From Escherichia phage ECO340P1, in the sequence record OP172791: 64,000 nucleotides of DNA. The stretch is one strand, 5' to 3'. Both the position numbers and the translations under genes were made by a program. The notes under the pieces were generated by a model. It ran no database searches and was not told the DNA's origin. It was given only the letters and a program-made list of their open reading frames with translations. Position 1 is the stretch's first letter. Every line of letters begins with the position of its first letter. Shown piece after piece: positions 9,315-50,676 of the stretch.

Positions 9315-9343
9315 CTTGACAAGCCCAGGGATCGGGCTTATAC
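9315..9343 (+). promoter_or_regulatory. strong sigma70-type promoter reading into non-coding region
   Basis: TTGACA 9315-9320, N17, TATACT 9338-9343; spacer is itself a dyad AGCCC..GGGCT. Confidence 0.6.
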
Positions 9344-29102: not shown

Positions 29103-29103
29103 T

Positions 29104-30580: not shown

Positions 30581-30593
30581 TAAGGAGCTAAAA

Positions 30594-31067: not shown

Positions 31068-31079
31068 GAGGAGATTAGT

Positions 31080-31301: not shown

Positions 31302-31304
31302 GTG

Positions 31305-31363
31305 TTGACATAGTTCTTAAAAAGAGTAAGATATATCACATGAAGCGGGGAATAGTTCCCCGC
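31305..31363 (+). promoter_or_regulatory. promoter-hairpin cassette (plus-strand copy) for TerC gene
   Basis: TTGACA 31305-31310, N16, TAAGAT 31327-31332, hairpin GCGGGGAA-TAG-TTCCCCGC 31345-31363, then SD GAGAGGAGAAAAG. Confidence 0.6.
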
Positions 31364-31380
31364 AAAGAGAGGAGAAAAGA

Positions 31381-32355: not shown

Positions 32356-32361
32356 TAAATG

Positions 32362-32386
32362 AGCCTCCTTCGGGAGGCTATTTTAT
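32362..32386 (+). terminator. rho-independent terminator after TerC gene
   Basis: AGCCTCC-TTCG-GGAGGCT followed by ATTTTAT. Confidence 0.7.
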
Positions 32387-32397
32387 AGGAGAGATTT

Positions 32398-32748
32398 ATG
32401 AGTAATTTTGATGAAATTCAAGAACTTGTTTGGGATTTATCTGGTGATGTGGATTACATTTCAGATTATCTTTCAAAAGTTTACCCTGGGGTAAGCGTTA
32501 TGATTGTGACCAAAGATCCAATTAATTTGCCTCCTAATGTTGTAGCTTGTTGTGGAAGTGGTTCAGGAGAAGTAGAGCCTGTATCTCGTTGGGAATTAAC
32601 TAAAGCTGTTTCAAAACGAAACGGTGAAGTTTTGAATATTGATATTGAGCAAATATGGACTTCTCCAGCAGCCAAATGGAATGATCCAAATGGTTGGGAT
32701 TTGTTCTTCTGGGATAATGAGACTGATGATGAGGTGTTTTTAAAATGA
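32398..32748 (+). CDS. hypothetical protein (116 aa)
   Basis: ORF with SD AGGAGAG. Confidence 0.55.
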   Translation: MSNFDEIQELVWDLSGDVDYISDYLSKVYPGVSVMIVTKDPINLPPNVVACCGSGSGEVEPVSRWELTKAVSKRNGEVLNIDIEQIWTSPAAKWNDPNGWDLFFWDNETDDEVFLK

Positions 32749-32990
32749 AATACTTGTTGGTTGTGTTTGAAAATATCTGTTTTGCAATAGGGTTGTTTGT
32801 TGTAATTTTTGTATTGACAAGCGTAATCAACGGCAGTAAAGTGAGTTTATACCGAGATGGAGAGCAACTTTATTGCTTCTCTGGAGATTTCAAACACAGA
32901 TGTATTAATAGCCAAAACGAGGAAAGCAAATATGAAAAAACTAGCCCTGATTTTAATTGGTTGTATCTTTTTAACAGCTTGCGAGGATGA
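32745..32990 (+). CDS. possible small membrane protein (overlaps next gene by 59 nt)
   Basis: ORF with SD GAGGTG and hydrophobic segment; overlap makes it doubtful. Confidence 0.3.
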   Translation: MKYLLVVFENICFAIGLFVVIFVLTSVINGSKVSLYRDGEQLYCFSGDFKHRCINSQNEESKYEKTSPDFNWLYLFNSLRG

Positions 32991-33369
32991 AACAAATCCT
33001 GCACAATACCAACAACCTCCTCAACAATACGCTCAACAAGGATCTGACGGAGATACAACTATTATCAACAATGGTGGCGGTTCTAGTAGTAGCGGTGTTG
33101 GTGAGTTTGCTACAGGTATGTTGTTAGGGCATATGATGAGTGGCGGTAGTAATCGTAGCAGTGGGGATTATAACGATAACAGAACGATTATTAATAAGCA
33201 TTATAATACACCTAAACCGAAAACTAATTTTTATGGTAAGCCTAAACAAGAGATAAAAACTTATGAAAAGCCGAGACAAACTTTTAAAACAAATAGTAGC
33301 TATACAACTCGTAAATCTTACAATAGCCCTTTAAGTAAAAAGAGTTCATCTCGTAGCAAGCGACGTTAA
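32932..33369 (+). CDS. lipoprotein with Gly/Ser-rich region
   Basis: ATG 32932 with SD GAGGAAAG; signal peptide plus lipobox LTAC; glycine-zipper-like GEFATGMLLGHMMSGG. Confidence 0.6.
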   Translation: MKKLALILIGCIFLTACEDETNPAQYQQPPQQYAQQGSDGDTTIINNGGGSSSSGVGEFATGMLLGHMMSGGSNRSSGDYNDNRTIINKHYNTPKPKTNFYGKPKQEIKTYEKPRQTFKTNSSYTTRKSYNSPLSKKSSSRSKRR

Positions 33370-33383
33370 TAAGGAGAAAAACA

Positions 33384-33977
33384 ATGACAATTTCTATTCG
33401 TACTTCCATTACAGGTGTTAAAAGTTTGCCTAATGCTTTGCAAATCACACGTGCTTTGAGGGATACGTTCTCTGCTGTGGATGAGCATAAGATGCTCGAT
33501 AATCTCTCAAATTGGCCCTATTTTCATTATTTTAAAAATGAAGACGACGAGTTTATAGACGCTGTTTCTTACGGTTATGATTTCGGTAAGGAGGTTTCTC
33601 CTGAAGAATTTGTAGCTATGGTGTTCCCAAACGGTTTGCCTACTCGCAGTAAACGTAAAAAAGGACCAAAAAACAAGAAACGTGCTACTAATAAAGCTAC
33701 CATTTTCTTTACTGATGGCACACAATATACGATTAAAGATTTTGAAGAGGTATCTTATACAGCAGGTGGGAGTCTTTCTTTCTACACCATCAAAAAACAA
33801 AACTATACGTTCAGCCATGTTTCTAACATGATTGAAATGTTAGTAGAAGATATTGAAAGCGTGGCTGTGTTAGGTATGCATAAAAGCTTTTTAATTACAA
33901 ATATTTCAGATTTCAGTGCAAGTTTATCTGGCCCTGATTTTGAAGCCACGACCACGCATTTCGCTTTTAAGGTGTAA
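33384..33977 (+). CDS. hypothetical protein (197 aa)
   Basis: ORF with SD TAAGGAGAAAA; basic stretch RSKRKKGPKNKKR. Confidence 0.55.
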   Translation: MTISIRTSITGVKSLPNALQITRALRDTFSAVDEHKMLDNLSNWPYFHYFKNEDDEFIDAVSYGYDFGKEVSPEEFVAMVFPNGLPTRSKRKKGPKNKKRATNKATIFFTDGTQYTIKDFEEVSYTAGGSLSFYTIKKQNYTFSHVSNMIEMLVEDIESVAVLGMHKSFLITNISDFSASLSGPDFEATTTHFAFKV

Positions 33978-33980
33978 GTT

Positions 33981-34571
33981 ATGCATACCGAGAGAGACTT
34001 GCAACTCTTGTGGTGGGAAGTGATGCAGGAAATAAAAGAAGATTTTCCTGTTTACTACAACATGTTACGTGAAGCAGGATATAAAGCTTGTGTTAGAAAC
34101 AAAGTGAATAACTCTTTCGGTTGGTGCAACTACCGAGATAAAATTGTTGTTGTAAATTGGCACTTGCATAAGAACTCCACAAGAGATATGATCGTGGATA
34201 CAATGAAGCACGAAATTGCTCATGCTATTGATGGTTGTATGGGTAAGTTTAGTAGGCACGGTGCTCATTGGCAAAAACTGGCAGCAGAATTAGGGGCTAA
34301 TCCTAAAGCCACTTCCAAAGAGCCGTTGAACCACGAATATAAATATGTTCTTGTTCTGGTAGATAGGTTTGCGACAAGATGTGTTAGAGGTTATAATCGT
34401 AAACCTAATCGCATGTACCCAGGTAAGCAACCTAATATGTGGTTGAAATCAGATAAAGAAGGGACCGAAGGAAAATTATGGTTGTATAAATGGGACGATT
34501 GGGTTAAAGTAGCTAAAGAGTACGGTGTTTCACCATATATAAGAGATGCAGAAGAGGAGAATGAAGAATGA
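33981..34571 (+). CDS. SprT-like zinc metallopeptidase domain protein
   Basis: HExxH motif in context MKHEIAHAIDG. Confidence 0.6.
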   Translation: MHTERDLQLLWWEVMQEIKEDFPVYYNMLREAGYKACVRNKVNNSFGWCNYRDKIVVVNWHLHKNSTRDMIVDTMKHEIAHAIDGCMGKFSRHGAHWQKLAAELGANPKATSKEPLNHEYKYVLVLVDRFATRCVRGYNRKPNRMYPGKQPNMWLKSDKEGTEGKLWLYKWDDWVKVAKEYGVSPYIRDAEEENEE

Positions 34572-35680
34572 CAAGTCCATTTTTAAAAGCAGCTACTGGT
34601 GGTCAGAAGAAGCCTGAAATGAGCGTATTTGCTGCAACAACAGATGCAAGTAAATCTGTATTCGCTCCAAGCGTGTTAGATGCCAGTCCTGTTTATGCAC
34701 CAGCGGCACCGCAAGAAGTTCCAGTTTTGCCTTCTATGACCCGACAAGAGATTGAAGAGATTGGGGCAGAGGCAGGAACAACCTTGCGTTCCTTGAATGC
34801 CGAGGTGTTAAAACATCAACGTAGTAATCAAGGCGATCAGATGAGTGAACGACTCACAGCTTTGATTAAACAGGCAAAACAACTTGATCCAAACTCTATT
34901 AAACAAAGCAAGGGTATTACTAAACTCATTAAAAAAGTTATGGGTATGAAAGAAGACCTGTTCGGGGAGTTTGATAATGTTAATAACCGTATTGAAGAGT
35001 TGGTAAAGAACCTTCAAATGGATATTCGCAAAGAAGAAGATTCCTTGGTATATCTTGAAAAGCTGCATCAAGCTATTGGACAATATGCTGCAAGTTTGAA
35101 CCGAGATATGCAGCTTCTAACAGCAACCTATGAAAAAGAAGAACAAGCTTTGGCTGCTCTTCCAGAAGATGCAGTAGAACAGCGACAAGTGATCCGAGAT
35201 ACTTTGGATCTTCTGGAGATTCGTATTGCAGATTTAAAAGCATTGCGCCTACTGTGTGTCCAAATGGGACCGCGTGTACAAGGTATGCAAAAAGTTTCTG
35301 CAAGCTTAATGCGATCTGCGCGTAACATAGTAAATAATGTTATTCCTGCTTACTCTGCTAACTTCTCAATGTATATCGAGAGCTTACGTCAAATGAAAGC
35401 AGCAGAGACGCAGAATAACGTTCTTGATGAATTTAACCTGGCAATTAAACTGGGTAGCGATCTTGCCACACAGAATCAGATCGAAGCAGCAGCACTGGCT
35501 AACCGTCAAGTGTTGGATATTGAAACTCTGCGTCACGATCAGGAAAACTTGGTTAAGATGCTGGAAGAAACTAACCGCATCAATACGGAAGCCCGTGCTG
35601 CTCGTGTTGATTATATTAATGAAGTTCAATCTCTGGAAGACGGGATGGTAGCTGCTGTGAAACGAGGGCTTGGTAAATGA
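34568..35680 (+). CDS. coiled-coil protein, TelA/KlaA-like (tentative)
   Basis: Long helical Leu/Glu/Gln-rich protein; family assignment is from memory of TelA pattern and genomic context. Confidence 0.55.
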   Translation: MTSPFLKAATGGQKKPEMSVFAATTDASKSVFAPSVLDASPVYAPAAPQEVPVLPSMTRQEIEEIGAEAGTTLRSLNAEVLKHQRSNQGDQMSERLTALIKQAKQLDPNSIKQSKGITKLIKKVMGMKEDLFGEFDNVNNRIEELVKNLQMDIRKEEDSLVYLEKLHQAIGQYAASLNRDMQLLTATYEKEEQALAALPEDAVEQRQVIRDTLDLLEIRIADLKALRLLCVQMGPRVQGMQKVSASLMRSARNIVNNVIPAYSANFSMYIESLRQMKAAETQNNVLDEFNLAIKLGSDLATQNQIEAAALANRQVLDIETLRHDQENLVKMLEETNRINTEARAARVDYINEVQSLEDGMVAAVKRGLGK

Positions 35681-35874
35681 GAATCCGTATCTATATAATT
35701 GATGAAGACATTGGTGTCCGTTATGATGACGAAAAACGATTCGCACCGATGGGAGGCATATATCCCCCAAGTGTTCTAGCAGTTTGTCGTGATTGTTATA
35801 TTTATGAAGGTTGTCGTAACTTCCGTAAATTCGAACTCCTTGCAGATATTGACTTCAATGAGGAGGAGGAGTAA
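35677..35874 (+). CDS. hypothetical protein (65 aa)
   Basis: ORF with ATGA overlap. Confidence 0.5.
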   Translation: MRIRIYIIDEDIGVRYDDEKRFAPMGGIYPPSVLAVCRDCYIYEGCRNFRKFELLADIDFNEEEE

Positions 35875-36047
35875 TGAAAATATTACGAGTGAATATTGAA
35901 ACTGCTTGGTGTGGATGCAATGAGGTTGTTGATATTGAGATTGAAGAGGATATGTCTCAAGAAGATATCGAAGATCTTGCAAAAGAAACATTCCAGGATT
36001 ATTGTAACTACGGGTTCCATATTTTAGAGGAGGGAGAAGATGTTTAA
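35874..36047 (+). CDS. small acidic protein (57 aa)
   Basis: Unlisted ORF with SD GAGGAGGAGGAG. Confidence 0.4.
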   Translation: MKILRVNIETAWCGCNEVVDIEIEEDMSQEDIEDLAKETFQDYCNYGFHILEEGEDV

Positions 36048-36243
36048 CTACGAGAACGACCCTAACATTATCCAGTTAACTCGACAAGAACTGATCACAA
36101 TCATGGAAGATGCTTTTATCGATGGGTGGAAGACTCAAAACTATGATTGGAGTGGCCCAGAAGACTTTCTGCGTCTTCATAAAGAGTATGACGAGTCCAG
36201 TGAGACGACTATTGCCATTGACGATCTTAAGGCAGGTGTATAA
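36040..36243 (+). CDS. hypothetical protein (67 aa)
   Basis: ORF with SD AGAGGAGGGAG. Confidence 0.5.
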   Translation: MFNYENDPNIIQLTRQELITIMEDAFIDGWKTQNYDWSGPEDFLRLHKEYDESSETTIAIDDLKAGV

Positions 36244-36812
36244 TGGGTTGCTTTAGTTTTCTGTGTAAGGAGTCGGGCAAAGCTGCCCTCTCCACCTCTT
36301 TCGATGGATCTCCTTGTTATCTCTTTCTACTGAAAGATGGAAAGGTTATCGAAGAGATGCACGGCAATTATGATAGTTATGGGCGTGTCTTCTCCAGTAA
36401 GCAGGATGCTCACGGGAACAGAGAAAGCTTTAAATGGACTATACCTTGGAGCGACGTTTGTGATCTTATGTTCTCTGTAAACCGTGGAGACGGTATTGCT
36501 ATGGTTTTAGCAGAACACTTTACAGGAGAAGCCCCCACAGAACGATCCGAGGATGATCCTAATCAAGGTTGGGGAGACGGAGACGGAGAAGAAGAAGAGG
36601 ATTATTTCTACAGCACCGAAAATAATATTTTCAAACGTGTTGACAACCCTTATCATAAAGTGCATAATGTCCTCACTGAAACAGAAGACGACAAAATGGA
36701 AATTGAAGAAGATGATCCTCTTGTAACACTTCCTATAAGTGAGTTACAAAAGATCACTAAGGAAGCTTACGATTTGGGCTTCAAAATTGGTAGAGGAGGT
36801 ATGCGTGTTTAG
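36243..36812 (+). CDS. acidic hypothetical protein (189 aa)
   Basis: ORF; acidic stretch GDGDGEEEEDY. Confidence 0.55.
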   Translation: MGCFSFLCKESGKAALSTSFDGSPCYLFLLKDGKVIEEMHGNYDSYGRVFSSKQDAHGNRESFKWTIPWSDVCDLMFSVNRGDGIAMVLAEHFTGEAPTERSEDDPNQGWGDGDGEEEEDYFYSTENNIFKRVDNPYHKVHNVLTETEDDKMEIEEDDPLVTLPISELQKITKEAYDLGFKIGRGGMRV

Positions 36813-37083
36813 ATTCAATATTCAAGAAGAAAAAAGTCAAGATTTACCTATTGCTTTCGAAGATCTTGACGTAGGGGCAACATTCATGTATTATGATGCC
36901 TATGAAGACGCAGGGTTGGATACCTACCGTAACTTGGTGTTCATTAAAAATTCCACAAACAGTGCGATTTGTATTAATGGATCACTAGCACAACGAGGCT
37001 ATACTCATTGCATCCCACCAGATACAAATATGGTGGAAGTAGATTTAGAAGTTACCAATATTACACTTAAGAAGGAGAAATAA
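36805..37083 (+). CDS. small protein, paralog of 38105-38374 (GTG start)
   Basis: GTG five nt after SD GAGGAGG; shared motif DLDVG.TF.Y..A..E.GLD. Confidence 0.45.
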   Translation: MFRFNIQEEKSQDLPIAFEDLDVGATFMYYDAYEDAGLDTYRNLVFIKNSTNSAICINGSLAQRGYTHCIPPDTNMVEVDLEVTNITLKKEK

Positions 37084-37084
37084 T

Positions 37085-37879
37085 ATGTCCGAGAAAATCA
37101 GCCTGAAAAAACGTCAAGAAAACCTTGCTTTCTCTCTGAAAAAGAATAAGAACCTGAATGAAGGTAAGATTGTTCTTCGTGTAGCATGTGCTCTAGATAT
37201 TTCTGGTAGTATGCATGGTCTATATTCTAGTGGGGTAGTGAGTGATTTTGTAGGTAAACTGCTTCCTTTTGGTATGCTGTTCGACGATAATCAACAAATT
37301 GATATGTGGGCCTTCAATACGAGTTCCCAAGAGCTTACTCCAGCAACAGCAGACGTTTACGATGACTATGTTGGTAAATGTATGCGTAATGTTCGTATCG
37401 GAGGTGGAACAAATTACGCCCCTGTAATGGCAGATATCTACGATGAGTATTTTGGCACTGTTACCAAATATATTACCACTAAACAAGTGGTACAAGAGGA
37501 GGCTCCAAAGAAAGGCTTCTTTAATCGTCTGCTTGGTAAAACTGAAACAGTGTCTGTAGAGCGTGAAAAAGTTGTAGCTGTATCTGAACCAGGTGCTGAC
37601 GTTACCCCTGGTGTTGTATTCTTCCAGACGGATGGTGAGAATGGTGATCCTAGTGCTGTTCGTCGTCTTATTGAAGAGAATAAGAATAAACCTATTTATT
37701 GGTTCATGGTTGGCGTTGGTAATGAGAAGTTTGGGTTCCTGAAAGAACTGGCAAATGCTTATGATAATGTTGGTTTTATTGGCATTAAAGATTTAGACTT
37801 GACAGATTCAGAGCTTTATGACAAACTCTTATCTGAGGAGTTCGGAGAGTGGGTTGTTAAAGTAGGTGCTAAAAAATGA
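37085..37879 (+). CDS. von Willebrand factor type A (vWA) domain protein, TerY-like
   Basis: MIDAS motif LDISGSMHG, GGTNYAP, FFQTDGENGD; N-terminal KISLKK repeat like TerD N-terminus. Confidence 0.7.
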   Translation: MSEKISLKKRQENLAFSLKKNKNLNEGKIVLRVACALDISGSMHGLYSSGVVSDFVGKLLPFGMLFDDNQQIDMWAFNTSSQELTPATADVYDDYVGKCMRNVRIGGGTNYAPVMADIYDEYFGTVTKYITTKQVVQEEAPKKGFFNRLLGKTETVSVEREKVVAVSEPGADVTPGVVFFQTDGENGDPSAVRRLIEENKNKPIYWFMVGVGNEKFGFLKELANAYDNVGFIGIKDLDLTDSELYDKLLSEEFGEWVVKVGAKK

Positions 37880-38124
37880 TCGACGAGCTTGCCTCTCAAG
37901 TCATAGAAAATTATTGGCGCGAGAGAGAAGCTTTCATTATGCGCAGTCTCAAAGAGTATTTCATTGGGACTGTGCGAATGGAAGATATTGTAAGTAGAGT
38001 GGAGATTCATGTATGGCCCGATTATGAAGAATGGGTTGACAAAGAAAATGAAAATGCTATAATTCTTCGTATATACAAACCGGAGATAACATTAGGAGGA
38101 AGAAGTGTTAAACTTCGAAATTGA
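37876..38124 (+). CDS. hypothetical protein (82 aa)
   Basis: ORF with ATGA overlap. Confidence 0.45.
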   Translation: MIDELASQVIENYWREREAFIMRSLKEYFIGTVRMEDIVSRVEIHVWPDYEEWVDKENENAIILRIYKPEITLGGRSVKLRN

Positions 38125-40314: not shown

Positions 40315-40878
40315 ATGATTTATTATATTACTCCCTATCTGACAGGAAATATCGGCAAGGCTATCAATGAAGCCATTGCCGTTCTTCCAGATGATAGTTG
40401 GGTGTGTTTAAGAGATACCGATACAATGTTCCTCCTACCTGATCAACCATCTATGCTTGAAGAGCTTGTTATGTCAAATCCGCCTTTTGATGTAATAGGT
40501 GCAACTTGTAACAGGTTAGGCAGTGGTTATCAGCTTTTCTCTAACCAAATTAACGATGATCCAGATATTCTAAACCATATAGAATATGCTAAGATTGCAA
40601 GAGAATATCATAAAGTGAGTGTTGAAGAAGTTCCTTTCGGAACACCTCTAGCAGGTTTCTTCTTGCTTTTTAGAAAATCATTGTGGAATGAAATTCCTTT
40701 CGAAGAAAAATCTATCCAATTCGACTTAATTTTCTCTCGCACTTTACATGAAAAAGGAAAGAGGTTAGGATTGATGCGGGGAATGTATCTGTTTCACATT
40801 TACAGATTAGGTCAAACAAATCCTCAACGGTCTATACATCATTTATTACACTGTCATGATCACAGTAAAACTATTTAG
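40315..40878 (+). CDS. hypothetical protein, possible glycosyltransferase-associated
   Basis: ORF with SD GGAGGGGAG; DTDTMF motif; in glycosyltransferase cluster. Confidence 0.55.
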   Translation: MIYYITPYLTGNIGKAINEAIAVLPDDSWVCLRDTDTMFLLPDQPSMLEELVMSNPPFDVIGATCNRLGSGYQLFSNQINDDPDILNHIEYAKIAREYHKVSVEEVPFGTPLAGFFLLFRKSLWNEIPFEEKSIQFDLIFSRTLHEKGKRLGLMRGMYLFHIYRLGQTNPQRSIHHLLHCHDHSKTI

Positions 40879-40886
40879 GAGAGAAA

Positions 40887-41570
40887 ATGGAAAATATTAA
40901 AATTGGAGTGGGTGTTATCACTGTAGGTGTCCGTCCACTTAAAGACTACCTTGTAACAGATCCACGTGCAGATTTTCGAGTATTCAACGATCCAGATCGT
41001 AAAGGTGTAGCTTATGCCAGGAATGAACTTATGCACCAGTTTTATGAAGAAGGTTATGATTATTGGTTTATTTTTGACGACGATTGCTACCCAGTCATGG
41101 AGGGATGGGAAACATACTTTGTAGGTCAAGCTGTCTCTGGAGGATGGGATTTCTTTGGTATGCCGGAGTATTTCAAAGATAAAGTTGTTGGAAGCAAAGG
41201 AGAAGTTATTCTCTGGGAACTTGCAATGTGTCAATTTGCAATGTATTCTCGTGCCGTTGTTGAGAAGATGGGTTATTTCCGTCCTTACACTCACGGCTAT
41301 GGTTTTGAAGATGCTGAATGGGGACACCGTTTGCAAGCTGCTGGTTTGAATCATGGTATTCAGGCAACACCTTGTCCACTTCGTATCATGGCTTATATCC
41401 ACCCAGACGATGTTTTTGGAAACAATCCTATGCCTTTTGCTAATCTGACAAAAGAAGAGAAAGAAGCTGCTATCGGGATTAACTGGGAAGAATATAAAGC
41501 ATCTTTAGAGGATATTAAAAATGGGAAAATCCGAATTTCCTATGAGGAGGCACTGGCACATGTCAAATAA
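40887..41570 (+). CDS. glycosyltransferase family 2-like protein
   Basis: DxD motif IFDDDC and GYGFEDAEWGHR motif. Confidence 0.6.
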   Translation: MENIKIGVGVITVGVRPLKDYLVTDPRADFRVFNDPDRKGVAYARNELMHQFYEEGYDYWFIFDDDCYPVMEGWETYFVGQAVSGGWDFFGMPEYFKDKVVGSKGEVILWELAMCQFAMYSRAVVEKMGYFRPYTHGYGFEDAEWGHRLQAAGLNHGIQATPCPLRIMAYIHPDDVFGNNPMPFANLTKEEKEAAIGINWEEYKASLEDIKNGKIRISYEEALAHVK

Positions 41571-42507
41571 AAAATGGTCTAAACTAAAAATTGATGCAAA
41601 ACCTCATAGCGGTTGTGACTATCATCGTATTGTTATGCCATTTAACAACAATAATTTTCAACCTAAGAAAGATATTGTTGTGTTTAACCGTATCCACTCT
41701 AAAGGTGCAGAATACGTTTTATCTTTGAAACGTCAAGGTGTTAAGGTTGTTGTAGATTTAGATGATTTTTACCAACTTAATCCAGAGCATTATTTAGCAA
41801 GTCTATACGAGTCAAACACTCATGCTATTGTAGCTATGGTTAAGCTTGCTGATGTGGTTATTGTGACTACAGAATATTTGGCATATAAGATCCGTCACTT
41901 AAATAGAAATGTCGTTGTGATCCGAAATGCACTTCCTTTTGATAGCGGACAATTCACTTTGTCAAATGATCGTTCATCCGGTACCCCTGTTGTATGGGCT
42001 GGCGGTGCTAGTCACGAACCAGATTTACGACTAGTCTCTAATACTTTCGATGATGAACTTCTTACTATTGCGGGATATGAAGCATCACAAAGCATCACGG
42101 GACAAGAGTGGATTAAGATTCGCAGAAATTTACCAAATGCCAAATATAAAGCTGCTGTAAAAGATTTAGATAATTACATGAGTGTTTACGAAAGTCATGC
42201 TATTGCTATAGCTCCTTTGGTAGACAATGATTTTAATAATTGTAAAAGTAATCTCAAAATCCTGGAAGCTGGAGCAAAAGGTATTCCGATTATTTGTTCT
42301 AAGGTATTACCTTATTTTAACCCTGTAGATGCTCGCGCTGTTGCTTACGCAGAGAATAAAGCAGAATGGCATTACGAAATTGTTAAGCTTCTTCGCAATC
42401 CAAACTATCGGGAAGATCGTGGCTTGTTCTTGGCTGAACATGTTCGAACACATTATAATCTGGCAGATGCAAACGAGTTGCGACGCCAGGTTATTGAAAG
42501 TTTGTAG
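41560..42507 (+). CDS. glycosyltransferase-like protein, tandem paralog A
   Basis: ATG 41560; C-terminal KSNLKILEAGAKGIPIICS resembles GT-B nucleotide-sugar motif. Confidence 0.55.
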   Translation: MSNKKWSKLKIDAKPHSGCDYHRIVMPFNNNNFQPKKDIVVFNRIHSKGAEYVLSLKRQGVKVVVDLDDFYQLNPEHYLASLYESNTHAIVAMVKLADVVIVTTEYLAYKIRHLNRNVVVIRNALPFDSGQFTLSNDRSSGTPVVWAGGASHEPDLRLVSNTFDDELLTIAGYEASQSITGQEWIKIRRNLPNAKYKAAVKDLDNYMSVYESHAIAIAPLVDNDFNNCKSNLKILEAGAKGIPIICSKVLPYFNPVDARAVAYAENKAEWHYEIVKLLRNPNYREDRGLFLAEHVRTHYNLADANELRRQVIESL

Positions 42508-42514
42508 GTGAAGT

Positions 42515-43459
42515 ATGGGACAAATAATTCTTGACAATCGTAACGGAATCAATTATAGTGTCTGCGATTTCCATAGGGTAGTGCTGCCTTACTCAAGGCA
42601 GTTCTCTTCACAACCTAAATACAACGTTTTCGTTTTTAACGGAGTGCCAACAAAAGGTAAAGAGGGCTTTTTAGCCCTTAAAAACCTAGGCTTTAAAATG
42701 GTTATGGATTTGGATGACTCTTTAGTTATTCCAAAAGGACACATGTTAGAAGGTATTTTTGAATCAGGTATTCGTGAACATTTAAAATGGTTTTTAGAGC
42801 ACAGTGATCTTGTTACAACTACGACACCTGCCTTGCAAGTTGAACTTTCACAATACAATGATAATGTGCACATAATCCCTAATGGACTTCCTTATGACGA
42901 AGGTCAATTTGTGTTGACCCGTGATCGCTACTCCAAAACTCCATTAGTCTGGGCTGGAAGTGAAACACATAAGCAAGATTTGGCTATCTTGCCCGATTTT
43001 GGTAAAGATCTTACAATATGTGGTTTTCGTAGGGATTCTGAAGTTTTAAGTAGTCGTGAATGGTCTGTAATCAGAGAAAATGTAGCACCAACTTGTGTTT
43101 ATGAAGGTGTAAGACCATATGCCAACTACATGGAATCTTACGATGGTCATCAAATCAGTCTTGCGCCACTGATTGATAACGTGTTTAATAATGCAAAAAG
43201 CAATCTTAAAATTCTTGAGGCAGGTGCTAAGGGTTTACCTTTGATCTGTTCTCCTCGTGAGAATTATCATACACAAGAGTTTAAAGATCTGTTGTTCTTT
43301 GCTGAAACACCTTCCGAGTGGAAAGATATTACGGAATACTTATTAAGTGCTCCCGATGTTTGCATGGAGAAAGGATTAGCATTAGCTAAGTATGTCAGGA
43401 CTCATTATCACATTGATGTGTTGAATGAGCGTCGTAGACTTTTATTTGAGGAGCTATAA
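42515..43459 (+). CDS. glycosyltransferase-like protein, tandem paralog B
   Basis: Paralog of previous gene (CD(Y/F)HR, DLDD, KSNLKILEAGAKG(I/L)P(I/L)ICS). Confidence 0.55.
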   Translation: MGQIILDNRNGINYSVCDFHRVVLPYSRQFSSQPKYNVFVFNGVPTKGKEGFLALKNLGFKMVMDLDDSLVIPKGHMLEGIFESGIREHLKWFLEHSDLVTTTTPALQVELSQYNDNVHIIPNGLPYDEGQFVLTRDRYSKTPLVWAGSETHKQDLAILPDFGKDLTICGFRRDSEVLSSREWSVIRENVAPTCVYEGVRPYANYMESYDGHQISLAPLIDNVFNNAKSNLKILEAGAKGLPLICSPRENYHTQEFKDLLFFAETPSEWKDITEYLLSAPDVCMEKGLALAKYVRTHYHIDVLNERRRLLFEEL

Positions 43460-43737
43460 TGATTAACACTTTTGATTTTGAATACACCACTCGTAACGGG
43501 AAAGCCTTAGTTGTGGAGGTGGATTACTATTATGAAGAGCCTAACCCGCTTTCTCGTGAAAGTGATTGGGATTACCACGGAGGGCTTTTAATTGACGGTA
43601 TTCGTTTTTATGAAGGCTCTACAGAAGTTTTTGAAAAAGATTTAAATGTAACTGTAGCAGAAATTGCTTTCCAATTTAGAAAGCATATGGAAGAACTAGA
43701 AGCAGAATATATGATGGAGACTAACGAACCATTTTAA
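43459..43737 (+). CDS. hypothetical protein (92 aa)
   Basis: ORF with SD. Confidence 0.55.
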   Translation: MINTFDFEYTTRNGKALVVEVDYYYEEPNPLSRESDWDYHGGLLIDGIRFYEGSTEVFEKDLNVTVAEIAFQFRKHMEELEAEYMMETNEPF

Positions 43738-43749
43738 CAGGAGAACAAA

Positions 43750-45528
43750 GTGTCGCACATTATAACTAAATATGGATTTGATGTTGATCTTAGCAAGGAA
43801 GGGCATACAGGTTGTCCGCGCTGCATGAAAAATGGCAAGGATCGCTCTCGTAATAACCTGATGGTTTATGGATTAGATTCTAATGGAGAGCATAAAGGTG
43901 CTAAGTGCTTTGCGTGTGAATACACTATTCCTAGCGTAGAATGGTTACGAGAAAATGGTGAAGTTTTAGAAGAAGAGGAGGAGATTGTGGGTTCGGAATT
44001 TAATAAACAGATTCATCGTAAAATTGTTCAAGAAACATCAACCAACCCACGTGGTTATCGAGGAATTAAAGAAAAAGTTTCATCTTTCTATGGTGTTCGT
44101 TATGAATACCGTCAGGAAGGGGATCAGATGGTAGTAGAAAGTTGTTTATATCCGACTACTATCGGTAAAGAATTGGTTGGTTTTAAGCGTCGTATTCATC
44201 CTAAAGATTTCAGTAAACCTATTGGTCAAGTAGGTAAAGATGTAGATCTTTTTGGACAAATTCGTTTTGCAGACCGTTCTCATACTGTGGTAATTACAGG
44301 TGGTGAACACGATGCTCTGGCAGCTTATCAAATGCTATCTGAAAACTTGGACAACAAGTATGAACTTCCAGCAGTAGTTAGTGGCACAACTGGTGAAACC
44401 AGTATGTATAAACAAGTTCAGGCACAATATCCTTTCTTTGAAAAATTTAAGAAGATTATTGTTTGCATGGATAATGACAAAGCAGGTAATGAAGCATTTG
44501 AAAATATTGTTAAGGTGCTGCCTCGTAACAAAGTCTACCGTATGCAGATGGATCTTAAGGATGCCAATCAGTATCTGGAAGAAGGTCGTGCAAAAGATTT
44601 CGTAAAAGCTTTTTGGAGTGCTCGTCTATACACCCCAGCAGGTGTTTATGCTTCTAATGTCTTGTATGAAGCTGCATTAGAATGCTTGGAATCCAAGATG
44701 ATTACCTTGCCTCCTTTTATGCGTGTAGCTGCAAACATGCTGGGTGGTGGTTTAGTAGAGGAAGAGATTACAGTCATCCTGGCAAAGACCAGTATCGGTA
44801 AAACTTTAATGGTGAACGAGATCACCAAACATATTATTGTTGCGCACCCAGAACATACCCTAGGTATCCTGTCCTTGGAAGCAACTTATAAGAAATATTC
44901 TCGTAACCTGTTGTCCTCGTTCCTGCATATTCCTCTACACAGGAAAACACCGGAAGAGAAATTTCAAATCTTGGAAGAGAATAAAGAAAAAATCCTAGAT
45001 TTTTACGAAAGAGAAGATGGATCACCACGTTTTTATGTGTGTGATGATCGTGGAGCAGATGTGGAGTCTATCAAAGAAAAAGTTTTGGAGATGATCATCT
45101 ATTTTGGAGTAACAATTCTTGTTATCGACCCTTATTCTGATTTGCTTTCTGGTATGGATGTTCAAGCCCAGGAAGAGTTAGCAACATGGTTGAAGCGCAT
45201 CATGAAAGAGTATGCTATAACTATTATCGTCATCTCACACGTTAAGAAATCGGCTAATGGTGGCAATGAACACTTAACAGAGGACGATGCAATGGGTAGT
45301 AGTTTCTTGGCTAAAGGTGCTGGTATTACCTTGGCTTTGGAACGAGATAAAGCCGCTGAAGACCCTGTAGAACGCAATACGACTCATTGCTTTATCCTAA
45401 AAAACCGTGAGTTCTCGGAAACTGGTCCGGCAGGGCAGTTTTACTATGACATTAGAACTGCAACTCTGCATGACAAAGAGCAGTATTTCAACAATCCTGC
45501 TAATTTGCCTACGGATAGCAACTATTAA
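43750..45528 (+). CDS. DNA primase/helicase (T7 gp4-like)
   Basis: GTG start after SD AGGAGAA; Zn-binding CPRC..CFAC, TOPRIM (GGEHDA, MDNDKAGNEA), Walker A AKTSIGKT. Confidence 0.85.
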   Translation: MSHIITKYGFDVDLSKEGHTGCPRCMKNGKDRSRNNLMVYGLDSNGEHKGAKCFACEYTIPSVEWLRENGEVLEEEEEIVGSEFNKQIHRKIVQETSTNPRGYRGIKEKVSSFYGVRYEYRQEGDQMVVESCLYPTTIGKELVGFKRRIHPKDFSKPIGQVGKDVDLFGQIRFADRSHTVVITGGEHDALAAYQMLSENLDNKYELPAVVSGTTGETSMYKQVQAQYPFFEKFKKIIVCMDNDKAGNEAFENIVKVLPRNKVYRMQMDLKDANQYLEEGRAKDFVKAFWSARLYTPAGVYASNVLYEAALECLESKMITLPPFMRVAANMLGGGLVEEEITVILAKTSIGKTLMVNEITKHIIVAHPEHTLGILSLEATYKKYSRNLLSSFLHIPLHRKTPEEKFQILEENKEKILDFYEREDGSPRFYVCDDRGADVESIKEKVLEMIIYFGVTILVIDPYSDLLSGMDVQAQEELATWLKRIMKEYAITIIVISHVKKSANGGNEHLTEDDAMGSSFLAKGAGITLALERDKAAEDPVERNTTHCFILKNREFSETGPAGQFYYDIRTATLHDKEQYFNNPANLPTDSNY

Positions 45529-45547
45529 GGGCTTCGGCCCTTTTATT
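45529..45547 (+). terminator. rho-independent terminator after primase-helicase
   Basis: GGGCTTCGGCCC followed by TTTTATT. Confidence 0.7.
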
Positions 45548-45558
45548 AAAAATACCTG

Positions 45559-45587
45559 TTGACAACTTTGCGGAAGGGACTTATACT
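45559..45587 (+). promoter_or_regulatory. strong sigma70-type promoter for 45621 / MTase / DNA polymerase
   Basis: TTGACA 45559-45564, N17, TATACT 45582-45587; same hexamers as promoter at 9315. Confidence 0.6.
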
Positions 45588-45620
45588 TGTCTCATCAACC
45601 AAACAAGAGGAGAAGTAAAA

Positions 45621-46052
45621 ATGCGTATGACAATCGATCTGAATGCAAAAGTTAAAGCTGCTGGTGCTCTGGGTGCTGGTGTTATTAAACACAAACAAGC
45701 GTTGGCATTTGCCATCCCACATATGATTGTTGAGGATCATCCTGAAGAGTTTGCTGTAAAAGTTGTTGAGAACAATGTCTCTGTTATTGAACATCTTCCA
45801 ACTGGACGTTCTTACCGTGTTGTTTCTTCTAAAGGTTTCCGTTTCGATGTAAGCCCTTCTTTCACAAAAGGTGCTGGTCGTAGTAAAGTGGGTATTCTTT
45901 CTTACAAATATTATATCGATAAAGTTGCAGATGGTGTTGCATTCTGTCGTGTAAGTGAAGGTAAAGTAGATATCATCTTTAAAAATACTAAAAACATGGT
46001 TATTTCTGATGATGGTAAAGTTGACCTCACTATTGAGTTCGCTAACAACTAA
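45621..46052 (+). CDS. hypothetical protein (143 aa)
   Basis: ORF with SD AAGAGGAGAAG directly after strong promoter. Confidence 0.55.
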   Translation: MRMTIDLNAKVKAAGALGAGVIKHKQALAFAIPHMIVEDHPEEFAVKVVENNVSVIEHLPTGRSYRVVSSKGFRFDVSPSFTKGAGRSKVGILSYKYYIDKVADGVAFCRVSEGKVDIIFKNTKNMVISDDGKVDLTIEFANN

Positions 46053-46061
46053 GGAGGACTA

Positions 46062-46856
46062 TTGAGCAAGTTGAACACACTTGATCAATATTACACTAAC
46101 CCCGCTTATGCGGGGTTCTTATGTGATAAGATCAAAGAAATTTTTGGAGAGGAAGCTAACTACGTAGAACCATCTGCGGGAGAAGGAGCTTTCTCTTCTT
46201 GTTTTAAAAACATAACTTCTTTTGATATTGACCCTAAGTTTGAAGATTGTATTGAGGCAGATTTTTTAGCTCAATCTGTTGAGTCTGTTGGTAGTGTAAC
46301 TGCTTTTGTCGGTAATCCTCCATTTGGAAAAAATGCTAGTCTTGCCATTAAATTCTTTAACCATTGTGCTGAAATGCTGGATAACGAAGGTGGTATTTGT
46401 TTTATCTTGCCTCGCACATTTCAAAAAATCTTTTTTGCACACAAGCTAAATCCCCATATGCATCTTCTTTACGAAGAAGAATGTCCAAAAGGATCTTTTA
46501 TTCTTCATGGAGAACCTTGGGATGTTCCTTGTGTATTCCAGGTATGGATTAAACGCAACGAGAAGCGTTCTCCCGTTGTTTTAGGAGAGAATCGACTATT
46601 CGTATTAGGTAACAGTAAAGACTACGATATAGCCGTTAGGAGAGCGGGAGCAAGTGCAGGTAAAGTGTTATCAGAAGAAGATTCTTTATCTGAAGCATCT
46701 ACCTATTTTTTAAAAGCCTTGACTTCTGATCTTAAAACGCGTATCATTGAGGCTTACCCGTTACTTAAAGCTGAAGCTAGTAAAACTGCGGGAGTAAGAA
46801 GTTTAAGTTTAAAAGAACTTCAGTGGGTTCTGGAGAACATTAGAAAGGAGGAATAG
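46062..46856 (+). CDS. DNA N6-adenine or N4-cytosine methyltransferase (gamma-class-like)
   Basis: TTG start after SD AAGGAGG; motif order QYYTNP, EPSAGEGAF, VGNPPFG. Confidence 0.75.
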   Translation: MSKLNTLDQYYTNPAYAGFLCDKIKEIFGEEANYVEPSAGEGAFSSCFKNITSFDIDPKFEDCIEADFLAQSVESVGSVTAFVGNPPFGKNASLAIKFFNHCAEMLDNEGGICFILPRTFQKIFFAHKLNPHMHLLYEEECPKGSFILHGEPWDVPCVFQVWIKRNEKRSPVVLGENRLFVLGNSKDYDIAVRRAGASAGKVLSEEDSLSEASTYFLKALTSDLKTRIIEAYPLLKAEASKTAGVRSLSLKELQWVLENIRKEE

Positions 46857-49453
46857 TGAGTAAGTTTACATGGGATATTGAAGCAAACGGATTGTTGAAT
46901 AATGACACTATTGATTATTTAGCTAGTCCTTATCGTCTCAAAGACACATTTCAAATGCACTGTATTGTCTTAGAGAACCATGAAACAGGAGAAATAGTAG
47001 CTTTCCACGATGGCCCTAAATACATCTTTGATGGGCGTCCTTACGAAGAGTCAGATGGTAAATACACATATGTTCTTAAAGAGTATGTGGCGCAAGATTA
47101 CACACATTTTCAACTAAAAGATTTCCCAGATTTTATTAATCATGAAGGTTATTTTAAAGACAAGCCTGAATATCTAGTTGAAATGGCTGTGGCTCACAAC
47201 GGTATCAACTACGACTGGTTGGCTACAAAACTGTTTTATGGATTAGATTACAGTGTTAAATATAATACGTGGGGCAAAAATAAGGTAAAACTTATTGACT
47301 CCTTGATTTTGAGTAAAGTGTTAAACCCAGATCGAAAGATTGAGGGCAAATCAGGACATAGCTTGGCAGCACTTTCTCGAAAAGCAGGTGGTGATGTAAA
47401 AATAGATTTCCGTAAAGAGATTCCAGAAGAAGATCGATTTAAGACTTTTGCTGCGGATATGCTTTATTACTGTATCTATGACAACAAAGCCAATACGAGC
47501 GTATATAATTACCTTATGGAAGAATGGGGTGATTATGATAAATGGGAAGGTCCATTTGAACTTGAACAACGTGTAGCAGACATTATTACACGCCAGGAAC
47601 ACCGTGGGTTTGCTTTTAACATGAAACAAGCAGAAGAGAACCTTGCTTTTTTGGATGCAGAAATGGAGCGTCTTCGTTTACTCGTTGAGCCTATTTTGCC
47701 ACCTAAACCAGCAACAAAAGGTTATCTTAAGGCTTTTATTCCACCTAAGTTGCAAATTAAAAAGAACTTAGAGCCAACTAACCATATGATCAATTTTGCT
47801 AAGAAACATGATGGTCATTTGGAAGAGAGGGATGGCGATTGGTGGTTAGTTATGTTGGGGAAAGAGTGGAAACTGCCAGTTGCAGCAGATGAGCCTCTAT
47901 GTGATCCTAACATTCCTGCAACATTGAACGATACAACCCATATTAAAAACTGGCTTGTAGGATTAGGTTGGGTACCGTCTGAATATAAAGATAAAGACTT
48001 GACGCTTAAATCTGGCACCAAAATTAAAAAGAGCGAGGAAGAACTTCAGAAAGGTATTAGAGCTTACGTTGAGCAAACTCTATCTTCTAATTTTTGTCAG
48101 GATCGTTGTGATCATCTGGAGTGCACACCGGAAACTTTGGAAAGGAAGATTCAAGAGCGTATAGCAAAAGGTAAAGGTCGCGGTCTTAAAGTATTGACTA
48201 ACCCATGTTTTACCAAAGGTCAGGAAAAAGAAATTTGTCCTAACCTGCAAGCTTTGGGTGAGAAATTTCCTTATGCTACACAGATTGTAGAATACTTAAC
48301 GTATAAGCATCGTAGGAACTCTATTTTAGGTGGCGGTGCTGATTGGGAAGAAGATGAAGAAGATCAAGAATACGATAAAGGTTTCTTAGCCGCAGTAAGG
48401 GCGGATGGGCGTATTCCTACACCAGCCGCTACATGTGATGCTGCAACCTCTCGTATGAAACATAGATCTGTAGCTAATATTCCTCGTGTCACATCTTTGT
48501 TTGGATGGGAGATGCGTAACTTGTTTGGTGTAGAGGTTCCTAAATACTTCCAGATCGGCTACGACTTCGACTCTTTGGAAGCAAAAATTGAATCACATTA
48601 CTGTTGGCGGTACGAGCCGGAGCCACACGAGTATTGTAACGCTCTGTTGTTAGAGAAACCTAATGATGTTCACACAATGATGGCAAAACGTATCACTGAA
48701 ACTATTGGACGTAAATTTGAACGTAGTCCTGCTAAATCTGTTAAGTATGGTATTACCTATGGTGCACAAGCCGACAAGGTTGCTAAAACAATTGGTAGCG
48801 ACAAGTTTACAGGTCAATTGGTGTTCGATGCTTTCTGGGAAGCTGCATTCCCATTGGCGCGTCTTAAAGAACGTTTAAACGATTTCTGGGTTAAGACTGG
48901 TAAACAATATGTTTTGGGTATTGACGGTCGTAAGGTTCCTACTCGTTCTGCTCACGCGATTCTTAACTCTCTGTTCCAAAGCGGTGGGGTTATCTGTGCT
49001 AAACGTGCAATGGTTATTTATGATGACATGATCGAAGAAGAAGGGCTAAGTGTTGACTTCTTTAAAGATGACTGGAAGAATAAAGACTTCGTGCAACAAA
49101 TGATTGCATATCACGATGAAGCCCAGCTTGAAGTTTCTCGTAACCTTGTAGAATTCAAATGGTTTTCACCTGAATCATTAGGTTGGAAGAAAGTAGACGA
49201 TCCTGAAGAACAAAAGAAAATTGATAAAGAATGCCTTGCTAAAGTCGAAGAATGGAAGCATAATAAGGAAAAAGAGACAGGGCAAATTTGGGCTAACATT
49301 CATGAATCTCCCAAAGGTGGATGGTTTACAGCCTATAGTCGGGCAGGTGAACTTGCTGCTTTAGCTGTTACTAAAGCTGGAGAATTTTACAATCTTAATG
49401 TTCAGCTTACTGCTGGATATGACGTGGGGAATTCCTGGGCCAGTTGTCACTAA
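46856..49453 (+). CDS. family A DNA polymerase with 3-prime to 5-prime exonuclease
   Basis: GTG start after SD AAAGGAGGAA; Exo I WDIEANGL; motif A GYDFDSLEAKI; motif B RSPAKSVKYGITYGA; motif C YHDEAQ. Confidence 0.9.
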   Translation: MSKFTWDIEANGLLNNDTIDYLASPYRLKDTFQMHCIVLENHETGEIVAFHDGPKYIFDGRPYEESDGKYTYVLKEYVAQDYTHFQLKDFPDFINHEGYFKDKPEYLVEMAVAHNGINYDWLATKLFYGLDYSVKYNTWGKNKVKLIDSLILSKVLNPDRKIEGKSGHSLAALSRKAGGDVKIDFRKEIPEEDRFKTFAADMLYYCIYDNKANTSVYNYLMEEWGDYDKWEGPFELEQRVADIITRQEHRGFAFNMKQAEENLAFLDAEMERLRLLVEPILPPKPATKGYLKAFIPPKLQIKKNLEPTNHMINFAKKHDGHLEERDGDWWLVMLGKEWKLPVAADEPLCDPNIPATLNDTTHIKNWLVGLGWVPSEYKDKDLTLKSGTKIKKSEEELQKGIRAYVEQTLSSNFCQDRCDHLECTPETLERKIQERIAKGKGRGLKVLTNPCFTKGQEKEICPNLQALGEKFPYATQIVEYLTYKHRRNSILGGGADWEEDEEDQEYDKGFLAAVRADGRIPTPAATCDAATSRMKHRSVANIPRVTSLFGWEMRNLFGVEVPKYFQIGYDFDSLEAKIESHYCWRYEPEPHEYCNALLLEKPNDVHTMMAKRITETIGRKFERSPAKSVKYGITYGAQADKVAKTIGSDKFTGQLVFDAFWEAAFPLARLKERLNDFWVKTGKQYVLGIDGRKVPTRSAHAILNSLFQSGGVICAKRAMVIYDDMIEEEGLSVDFFKDDWKNKDFVQQMIAYHDEAQLEVSRNLVEFKWFSPESLGWKKVDDPEEQKKIDKECLAKVEEWKHNKEKETGQIWANIHESPKGGWFTAYSRAGELAALAVTKAGEFYNLNVQLTAGYDVGNSWASCH

Positions 49454-49471
49454 TCTAACGTATTGTTTTAT

Positions 49472-49492
49472 AAGGGGCTTCTGCCCCTTTAT
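49472..49492 (+). terminator. possible terminator after DNA polymerase
   Basis: AAGGGGC-TTCT-GCCCCTT with short T tail. Confidence 0.45.
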
Positions 49493-49502
49493 AGGAGAAG
49501 AT

Positions 49503-49694
49503 ATGAGTTACGATTTAGATTGTTTTGGTATGCCTTACCTACCAGATGAATTTGAAGGTAAAGAAGAACGTGAATGGGACGATGGGGATATCCGTTGTTG
49601 GTCTTGTGGTAAAGATATGTCTTATGAACAACATATGCACAATGATGGTTTCTGCATACATTGCTATAATGAAATTGATCTGGAGGAAGATTAA
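49503..49694 (+). CDS. small Cys-rich protein (63 aa)
   Basis: ATG 49503 with SD AGGAGAAG; CWSCG and CIHC motifs. Confidence 0.45.
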   Translation: MSYDLDCFGMPYLPDEFEGKEEREWDDGDIRCWSCGKDMSYEQHMHNDGFCIHCYNEIDLEED

Positions 49695-49861
49695 TGGGAA
49701 ATGGTATCATGATTTGCTATAAAATTGTGCGTATTGTCGGAGACGAAATTACCACTCGGTATTTTATGATAGAGTCTCAAGCCGATGAGGTTTACAATGA
49801 CTGGCTTGAAAAAGGTGGATACGATTTTGTATCTAAAGAAACTTTCCGTTTAGAAGTATAA
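49694..49861 (+). CDS. small hypothetical protein (55 aa)
   Basis: Unlisted ORF with SD TGGAGGAAGA; TAATG overlap. Confidence 0.4.
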   Translation: MGNGIMICYKIVRIVGDEITTRYFMIESQADEVYNDWLEKGGYDFVSKETFRLEV

Positions 49862-49871
49862 GGAGAAAACA

Positions 49872-50090
49872 ATGCGTAAATTAGTGAGCTTTAATGTTTC
49901 AATTCTTGTTGATGAACAAAATGAAGATGTTATTAAAGGTCTTGCAAATAAGATTGCAGGTGGAATGACGGAAGCTGAAGTGTGGGAAGAATGTGCTCGA
50001 CTTTATGAGGAAGGTGTTATTGAGGTCTTGGGGGATGAGATTAATATGGACGATGTTGTAAAAGTAACTGTGGAGCGTATCAATGACTAA
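49872..50090 (+). CDS. hypothetical protein (72 aa)
   Basis: ORF with SD AAGGAGAAAA. Confidence 0.5.
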   Translation: MRKLVSFNVSILVDEQNEDVIKGLANKIAGGMTEAEVWEECARLYEEGVIEVLGDEINMDDVVKVTVERIND

Positions 50091-50676
50091 ATCAAAACAA
50101 ATCAATATTGCCAAAGAAATTCTTACCGTATTAAAGATCGCTGATCCTAATTCTGTCTTGGCTGGCGGTGCTGTTCGTGATTGGCGTATTCTTGATATTG
50201 CTGGACGTGATCTGGATTTCTATACATCCCTTCCTGCACATCGGACTGAAGAACAAATACAAGGATTAATTGCATCTGCTTTAATGGGAACCAATATTCG
50301 TAAACTAGGAAACAAAGAGGCTTCTGACAATTATGAAGGTGTTACTGGTCTTAAACACGTTTTTGAGTTTGAACGTGATGGTCAGCTTTGCAACCTTATG
50401 ATTATGGAACCAAGCGTAATGACAACCTTTCTAAATGAGTTCGATCTGTCCATCTGCCAGGCTGCATTTGATGGGAAGGATTGTTATTATTCTAAAGATT
50501 TTGAAACAACCTTGGAAACAGGGATCTGCTTCTTGCACAAAGACGTTAGAGAAGATGCCAAACACGTTATTAAAATTGCTACACGTTTCCCATATCTTCG
50601 TTTTGTGAAAGAGGTTAAGGTTCCACGTCCACCTCAAGTAGATACCAGATTGGAAGAAGATGATATTCCTTGGTAA
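50083..50676 (+). CDS. minimal nucleotidyltransferase (Pol beta superfamily, CCA-adding/poly(A) polymerase head-like)
   Basis: Motif LAGGAVRDW..LDIAGRDLDF matches CCA-type head domain GGAVRD...D.D. Confidence 0.6.
   Translation: MTKSKQINIAKEILTVLKIADPNSVLAGGAVRDWRILDIAGRDLDFYTSLPAHRTEEQIQGLIASALMGTNIRKLGNKEASDNYEGVTGLKHVFEFERDGQLCNLMIMEPSVMTTFLNEFDLSICQAAFDGKDCYYSKDFETTLETGICFLHKDVREDAKHVIKIATRFPYLRFVKEVKVPRPPQVDTRLEEDDIPW

Follow-up and report, generated by a model that had tools for sequence, protein, structure and literature searches.

A putative orphan N6-adenine DNA methyltransferase beside the DNA polymerase gene of Escherichia phage ECO340P1 and its restriction–modification-like bacterial relatives

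We analysed a 64,000 nt stretch of DNA from Escherichia phage ECO340P1 (sequence record OP172791; hereafter the window), in which an ORF of 264 codons lies directly upstream of a gene for a family A DNA polymerase (Table 1). A 1.6-kb region is at least 99% identical with 35 deposited genomes, and the phage is a Phapecoctavirus (phAPEC8-like, Stephanstirmvirinae) of E. coli. An earlier note, made from the sequence alone, had described this ORF as a DNA amino-methyltransferase carrying the motifs QYYTNP, EPSAGEGAF and VGNPPFG in that order, and the translation does contain all three. The position immediately upstream of the polymerase is also borne out, since the TAG stop codon at 46854–46856 shares its last base with the first base of the polymerase GTG, a 1-nt overlap. 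The ORF is not a chance one, given the 2427 homologs found at E≤1e-3, mostly of 250–290 aa, and the match to PHROG 5172 (E 3.5e-110).

Table 1. Features of the methyltransferase locus, with positions in the window
Feature	Position	Strand	Evidence
Primase/helicase, 592 aa; upstream neighbour, ends the preceding transcription unit	43750..45528	+	DnaB_C and Toprim domains; phrog_239, E 2.4e-164
Terminator-like hairpin AAGGGC-UUCG-GCCCUU (45527-45542) with UUAUU tail, directly after the primase/helicase stop	45527..45547	+	-9.3 kcal/mol, z -2.2 vs shuffles
Candidate sigma-70-like promoter TTGACA-17-TATACT	45559..45587	+	Consensus match: 11/12 positions, best in 43000-50500
143-aa ORF, phrog_9938; first gene after the promoter	45621..46052	+	PHROG, E 9.8e-63
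Shine–Dalgarno AGGAGG, 4 nt 5' of TTG	46052..46057	+	Read from the sequence
Methyltransferase CDS, 264 aa; TTG start, TAG stop	46062..46856	+	ORF listing, profile matches, alignment, AlphaFold model
Motif X-like DQYYTNP, residues 8-14	46083..46103	+	D8 and T12 at least 90% conserved in 48 homologs
Motif I EPSAGEGAF, residues 36-44; AdoMet-binding loop	46167..46193	+	E36, P37, A39, G40, G42 invariant
Motif IV VGNPPFG, residues 83-89; predicted catalytic NPPF	46308..46328	+	N85, P86, P87, G89 invariant; F88 at least 90%
C-terminal ~100 residues (165-264) with RRxG..AGKV and TAGVRS motifs; presumed small DNA-recognition region	46554..46853	+	R194, G196, G200, G244, S247 invariant; pLDDT >90
Family A DNA polymerase, 865 aa; GTG start	46856..49453	+	PF00476, E 1.4e-13; phrog_17, E 2.7e-111

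The hairpin that follows the primase/helicase gene was missed by a consensus terminator scan because the T-run rule is not satisfied. With respect to the promoter, the earlier note had placed the methyltransferase under a strong promoter at 45559, and this site is indeed the best sigma-70 consensus match (11/12) between 43000 and 50500; however, the 143-aa ORF lies between the two, which puts the methyltransferase second in the apparent operon. The window has three exact matches to TTGACA-N16-18-TATAMT where 0.15 would be expected by chance; all three (9316–9344, 38036–38063 and 45559–45587) lie on the plus strand and are candidate host-polymerase promoters. A further promoter-like site (TTGACT-17-TATCAT, 46719–46747; 10/12 consensus positions) lies within the methyltransferase gene, at its 3' end and ahead of the start of the polymerase gene, and could allow the polymerase to be transcribed independently.

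The 143-aa ORF has no match in Pfam, NCBIfam or PADLOC, and its phrog_9938 family is very narrow (five protein clusters). It shares 30% identity over 94 aa (50 bits) with a homologous 152-aa ORF of the rV5-like phage LL12 (locus L002, 5782–6237), which lies directly 3' of the methyltransferase homolog, whereas the window ORF lies directly 5', so that the adjacency has been kept and the order swapped. In Phapecoctavirus and in Klebsiella phage 05F01 the genes run primase/helicase, phrog_9938 ORF, methyltransferase, polymerase, whereas LL12 has the polymerase/exonuclease first, then the methyltransferase and the phrog_9938 homolog. The polymerase itself has an ESCO5 orthologue of 1110 aa (locus L087, 12216–15545), which is 99–100% identical with the 865-aa window protein apart from a 245-aa insertion that follows ...ESHYC583, with the shared sequence resuming at CWRYE; this insertion is absent from the window phage and looks like an intein.

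The TTG start codon proposed previously is well supported: the AGGAGG Shine–Dalgarno sequence lies 4 nt upstream, no in-frame ATG occurs close to the N-terminus, and the N-termini of homologs in a 48-member alignment (MSKK..LDQYYT) coincide with the TTG-started N-terminus. Moreover, both the TTG and the Shine–Dalgarno sequence are kept in 05F01 and LL12, whose proteins are 54–59% identical with that of the window. The annotated 'DNA methyltransferase' CDS of 05F01 (603 nt; locus L088, 4419–5189) appears to be 5'-truncated, as tblastn finds a full 257-aa homolog whose TTG start directly follows the phrog_9938 gene and which overlaps a small annotated ORF. At 0.38, the GC content of the methyltransferase gene is the same as in the neighbouring genes, and where its codons differ between close relatives, the ratios of synonymous to nonsynonymous changes are 5:1, 8:1 and 8:0. 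As the GC content matches, the differences are mainly synonymous and the TTG is kept across genera, the gene was not acquired recently; it looks maintained and, from these sequence comparisons, appears to behave as an old core gene of the replication module.

The translation and the alignment of 48 homologs show the gamma-type order of the amino-methyltransferases, i.e. motif X, motif I and motif IV followed by a conserved C-terminal region, in agreement with the class that had been proposed, and the catalytic tetrapeptide (N/D)PP(Y/F) is present as NPPF. In addition to the residues given in Table 1, D55 is invariant in the alignment. At the level of profiles, the protein matches phrog_799, annotated as 'DNA methyltransferase', with an E value of 1e-10, and the PADLOC model MTase_II PDLC03255 with an E value of 3.6e-36 over residues 21–254, nearly the full length of this 269-position model; three more PADLOC MTase_II models match at E≤5e-21. 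No NCBIfam model matched and no Pfam model did so above threshold, the Eco57I family reaching 15.6 bits where its cut-off requires 25.3. PF26055, which is listed for some homologs, was not matched when those homologs were scanned against Pfam, and we found no mention of it in the literature.

Although a search of the PDB with the single methyltransferase sequence gave nothing significant, the profile of the family matched Ta1320 (E 1.7e-4), METTL5 (E 0.003) and, more weakly, M.TaqI (E 0.3), with the DQYYTNP segment aligning with LEQYPT of Ta1320 and METTL5; several homologs are labelled 'predicted RNA methylase' by JGI. The AlphaFold model (pLDDT 94) has a class I, Rossmann-like methyltransferase fold, and its full-length structural neighbours are DNA adenine methyltransferases: only gamma-class N6-adenine enzymes (M.BseCI, MmeI, CamA and M.TaqI) align over most of its length. 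These DNA methyltransferases align over 223–249 of the 264 residues, against about 137–173 for RNA methyltransferases. Matches in BFVD were confined to uncharacterized phage proteins and generic adenine methyltransferases.

A second ORF of 264 aa in the window (37085..37879) was considered as a paralog and rejected, as it encodes a vWA/TerF-like protein. A Ter-type gene cluster at approx. 29100–37900 comprises this vWA/TerF-like gene (37085–37876), TelA (34568–35677) and ORFs with ESCO5 counterparts annotated as TerC membrane protein, phosphoribosyltransferase, phosphatase and hydrolase. Elsewhere in the window, four consecutive glycosyltransferase-like ORFs (40315–43459), which may act either on DNA or on surface glycans, lie just upstream of the primase/helicase gene; one of them (40887–41567) has a weak, sub-threshold match to a TET-associated glycosyltransferase family (PF20691, E 0.001).

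The methyltransferase family also has members outside these phages, and we scanned bacterial genomes, taking one genome per species, which yielded 280 relatives, for which 79 loci were examined. At 21 of the 79 loci a methyltransferase homolog, with 33–43% identity over the full length, adjoins a conserved ORF of approx. 215 aa. This restriction-enzyme-like partner is mostly downstream on the same strand and usually overlaps the methyltransferase stop by 4–20 nt, and is convergent in two loci. It matches the PADLOC profile REase_II PDLC03460 (E 2e-13), and its invariant residues E15, D41 and S55-x-K57 would fit a PD-(D/E)XK-type site; it is that one profile match and the D...SxK pattern in the sequence that suggest a nuclease. 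The partner family is small, comprising 206 proteins, mostly from environmental proteobacteria, all of which are labelled hypothetical with no named member among them, and no relative was found in the PDB. In two Burkholderia-group genomes, Burkholderia anthina and a Paraburkholderia sp. (L029, 4968–8456, and L036, 4953–7430), the methyltransferase domain is fused to an Eco57I/N6_Mtase domain, forming the N-terminal part of proteins of 825–1162 aa, an arrangement of two methyltransferase domains that recalls enzymes acting on asymmetric sites. Because of the partner operons and these fusions, we conclude that the family includes methyltransferases of restriction–modification-like systems. Neither of the two enterobacterial loci examined showed the partner; both methyltransferase homologs are solitary there, and at least the one from Leclercia lies near phage-like genes.

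The claim that no cognate nuclease lies near the phage gene withstood these comparisons. An HMM search of the six-frame translation of all 64 kb of the window found no member of the partner family, and the annotation of the corresponding 60 kb of ESCO5 lists neither a restriction enzyme nor a second methyltransferase. The upstream 143-aa ORF was considered as the missing nuclease and rejected, since hhalign gave a probability of 0.3% against the partner family and there was no PADLOC match. The 'orphan' label therefore holds, given the absence of the partner from the window, the unrelated 143-aa ORF and an ESCO5 region without a restriction enzyme.

Several observations were made on the wider occurrence of the gene. 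The jumbo Cronobacter phage GAP32 (locus L089, 1641–4334) carries a 37% identical homolog beside a DUF262 protein and an HNH endonuclease, away from the replication genes. Approximately 20 records labelled 'Campylobacter phage' (135–143 kb; MG065644, MG065666 and others) contain an rV5-type gene at the identity level seen for E. coli Vequintavirus phages, and these labels may be wrong or the records contaminated. A DNA-level search of 5,426 complete E. coli genomes gave no match to the methyltransferase gene, and a plasmid collection contained one E. coli record with an rV5-type gene (53.6% identity) in addition to distant environmental homologs.

With regard to the substrate of the protein, Ta1320 and METTL5 are the best matches of the sequence profile in the PDB, so that the motifs by themselves do not tell DNA from RNA m6A enzymes, and an rRNA or tRNA N6-adenosine methyltransferase of the METTL5/Ta1320/COG2263 type, acting on host or phage RNA, would fit that result. 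It is nevertheless an improbable identity for this protein: its sequence similarity to Ta1320 and METTL5 is marginal; the RNA enzymes align over only some 137–173 residues and the C-terminal 100 residues have counterparts in DNA methyltransferases only; four PADLOC profiles for type II methyltransferases give strong matches; and METTL5-type enzymes are single domains of approx. 200 aa that act on rRNA, lack a C-terminal extension and, in eukaryotes and archaea, require a TRMT112-type partner, whereas the phage protein has 264 aa and a conserved C-terminal region. It is above all the restriction–modification-like operons of the bacterial homologs (and the fusions with Eco57I/N6_Mtase domains), together with the extent of the structural alignments, from which we infer that DNA is the substrate. 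As to the base, N6-adenine and N4-cytosine amino-methyltransferases have a common fold and overall motif set, and the earlier note had left both open. N4-cytosine enzymes typically carry SPP(Y/F) as motif IV, but here motif IV is an invariant NPPF and every long structural match is an N6-adenine enzyme. Since motif IV is NPPF, we regard an N4-cytosine DNA methyltransferase as very improbable; the invariant NPPF and the neighbours of the predicted structure point to N6-adenine, which is the half of that claim that stands, and the protein is most likely an adenine DNA methyltransferase.

One GenBank record (phAPEC8_ev052) names the methyltransferase 'DarB-like anti-restriction', which would make it a virion-packaged anti-restriction protein, and a weak match to phrog_9133 (E 1e-7), confined to the methyltransferase region, could be taken in the same sense. 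However, P1 DarB has several domains and exceeds 2000 aa, the phrog_9133 similarity covers only positions 732–859 of a 1259-position profile, and the phage protein is a single domain of 264 aa without a helicase or other domains. As only the methyltransferase core is common to both, the methyltransferase is not DarB-like, and of all the readings that we considered this one is the hardest to credit.

In this context, it is relevant how such phages fare against restriction. In the window, several palindromes are strongly avoided, with observed/expected ratios of 0.34 for GTAC (z = -12), 0.34 for GGCC, 0.45 for CCGG and 0.50 for CTAG. Many 6-bp palindromes are absent, including GGATCC, CGATCG, CCATGG, CAGCTG and TCCGGA (no sites against 7–13 expected for each, e.g. 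12.7 for GGATCC and 11.5 for CGATCG), and CTGCAG occurs once against 13 expected. This avoidance indicates that the phage is under restriction pressure, which it counters by the loss of sites. There is no avoidance of GATC, TGCA, AGCT or ATAT in the window, although the retention of GATC is equally well explained by host Dam. The rV5-like Vequintavirinae have been described as 'exceptionally susceptible' to EcoKI, EcoCFT_I, EcoRI, EcoRV, EcoCFT_II and EcoP1_I, all six of the systems tested (PMC8594841). The Vequintavirus phages RudolfGeigy, WalterGehring, EduardKellenberger and HeinrichReichert of the BASEL collection, which belong to this restriction-susceptible group, carry a homolog with 54% identity, and since they remain sensitive the enzyme is not a broad protector and the sites of those six systems are not covered by it. 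Our search of the literature on the methyltransferases of Phapecoctavirus, Vequintavirus, rV5 and Stephanstirmvirinae found generic statements only and no methylome or biochemical characterization.

We propose that the gene encodes an active, compact, AdoMet-dependent N6-adenine DNA methyltransferase of the gamma arrangement, which would work without a partner nuclease. It would be transcribed from the promoter at 45559 in a three-gene unit consisting of the 143-aa ORF, the methyltransferase and the DNA polymerase, and translated from its weak but conserved TTG start in coupling with the polymerase; being coupled in this way, it would be made during phage DNA replication. The target adenine would be flipped into the NPPF pocket and methylated at N6 within a short sequence, presumably read by the conserved C-terminal region of approx. 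100 residues. The benefit would most likely be that progeny DNA is shielded from one class of type II restriction enzyme, namely the family found beside the bacterial homologs, so that protection would be narrow rather than a general anti-restriction function. This reading, of an orphan enzyme of narrow specificity that probably protects against one nuclease class, ranks first and we consider it probable. In its favour are the intact motifs, the PADLOC matches, the partner operons of bacterial relatives, the lack of the partner in the window, the maintenance of the gene and the signs of restriction pressure; the sub-threshold Pfam score, the profile matches to RNA enzymes, the restriction sensitivity of rV5-like phages and the small, mostly environmental partner family count against it. 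An anti-restriction role, which the earlier note had also envisaged in the form of self-methylation, is plausible, and a broad one is unlikely.

Ranked second, and in our view rather unlikely, is that the same N6-adenine DNA methyltransferase has been selected for a role other than anti-restriction, in the phage's own DNA transactions, for example to mark replicated phage DNA as distinct from host DNA for phage nucleases, to time replication or packaging, or to regulate genes. Dam at the P1 pac site and the CcrM-type orphan enzymes are precedents for such marks. In keeping with it, the gene belongs to the core replication module in two phage subfamilies whose proteins are 54–59% identical, beside the DNA polymerase (exonuclease) in both; the weak TTG start is conserved, the adjacency to phrog_9938 survives the swapped gene order and the GC content matches the genome, unlike that of a recent capture; the relatives are still highly restriction-sensitive, and the two enterobacterial loci showed no cognate nuclease. 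Against this, the conserved synteny may reflect nothing but common descent, and the bacterial relatives sit in restriction–modification-like operons. A more specific proposal, which we hold to be somewhat more doubtful again, is that the methyltransferase and the phrog_9938 protein together serve rV5/phAPEC8-like phages as a core function of the replication module rather than as an accessory for evading defences, with an enzyme expressed at a low level from its TTG that marks nascent DNA for replication, packaging or self/non-self nuclease decisions (or, less likely, methylates RNA). If true, this would explain why the gene is retained in phages that are highly sensitive to restriction, and that otherwise unexplained conservation is the only room for something more interesting here. 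The narrowly protective orphan methyltransferase remains the reading that we prefer.

The identification as such is not new, because GenBank and UniRef already name the exact protein a putative DNA N6-adenine methyltransferase (it is also deposited, in NCBI and UniRef, as 'hypothetical protein'). The same protein is so annotated in dozens of Phapecoctavirus genomes, and as an ordinary phage orphan methyltransferase it matters little beyond its correct annotation. What the present analysis adds is an assignment to DNA that draws on the restriction–modification-like operons of bacterial relatives and on structure, rather than on motifs that are common to RNA m6A enzymes, and the conclusions that the 'DarB-like' label is unfounded and a broad anti-restriction role unlikely. 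Because of their broad host range, Phapecoctavirus phages have found use in cocktails for therapy and biocontrol (PMC10844046), and knowing the protected site would therefore help to predict which host restriction systems are limiting.

Compared with known systems, the window protein resembles M.TaqI, M.BseCI, CamA and the methyltransferase domain of MmeI in the order of motifs X, I and IV (NPPY/F) and in its class I fold. However, it has only 12–19% identity with the gamma-class enzymes of solved structure, falls below threshold with the Pfam models of their families, and has only a C-terminal region of approx. 100 residues where those enzymes, of 420–920 aa, possess a large separate target-recognition domain. 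The bacterial restriction–modification-like pairs from Alpha- and Gammaproteobacteria, Verrucomicrobia, Poseidonibacter and Gracilibacteria (loci L010, L024, L027, L072 and others) belong to the same family and have the same C-terminal motifs, but they have the overlapping downstream gene for the ~215-aa restriction-enzyme-like protein, a partner that the phage methyltransferase lacks. In METTL5, Ta1320 and PH1948 (COG2263), which are of approx. 200 aa, only the Rossmann core can be aligned (137–153 residues) and the conserved C-terminal region is missing, and their genes, unlike those of the bacterial homologs of the window protein, have no link to restriction-enzyme-like genes.

Among phage enzymes, T4 and T2 Dam, P1 Dam and the methyltransferases of Drexlerviridae are solitary N6-adenine methyltransferases, the type predicted for the window protein. 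Such classical phage orphan methyltransferases are thought to protect phage DNA or to regulate packaging. That they have no simple link with resistance to restriction is discussed in PMC8594841. T4 Dam belongs to the alpha class, with another motif order and GATC specificity, whereas the window protein is of the gamma type, and with P1 DarB, a giant multidomain virion protein with an N6-adenine methyltransferase-like domain, it has only the methyltransferase core in common. Judged by its sequence, the window protein appears to represent a compact family that would act in the gamma-class, M.TaqI-like mode and whose core is closest in sequence to METTL5 and Ta1320.
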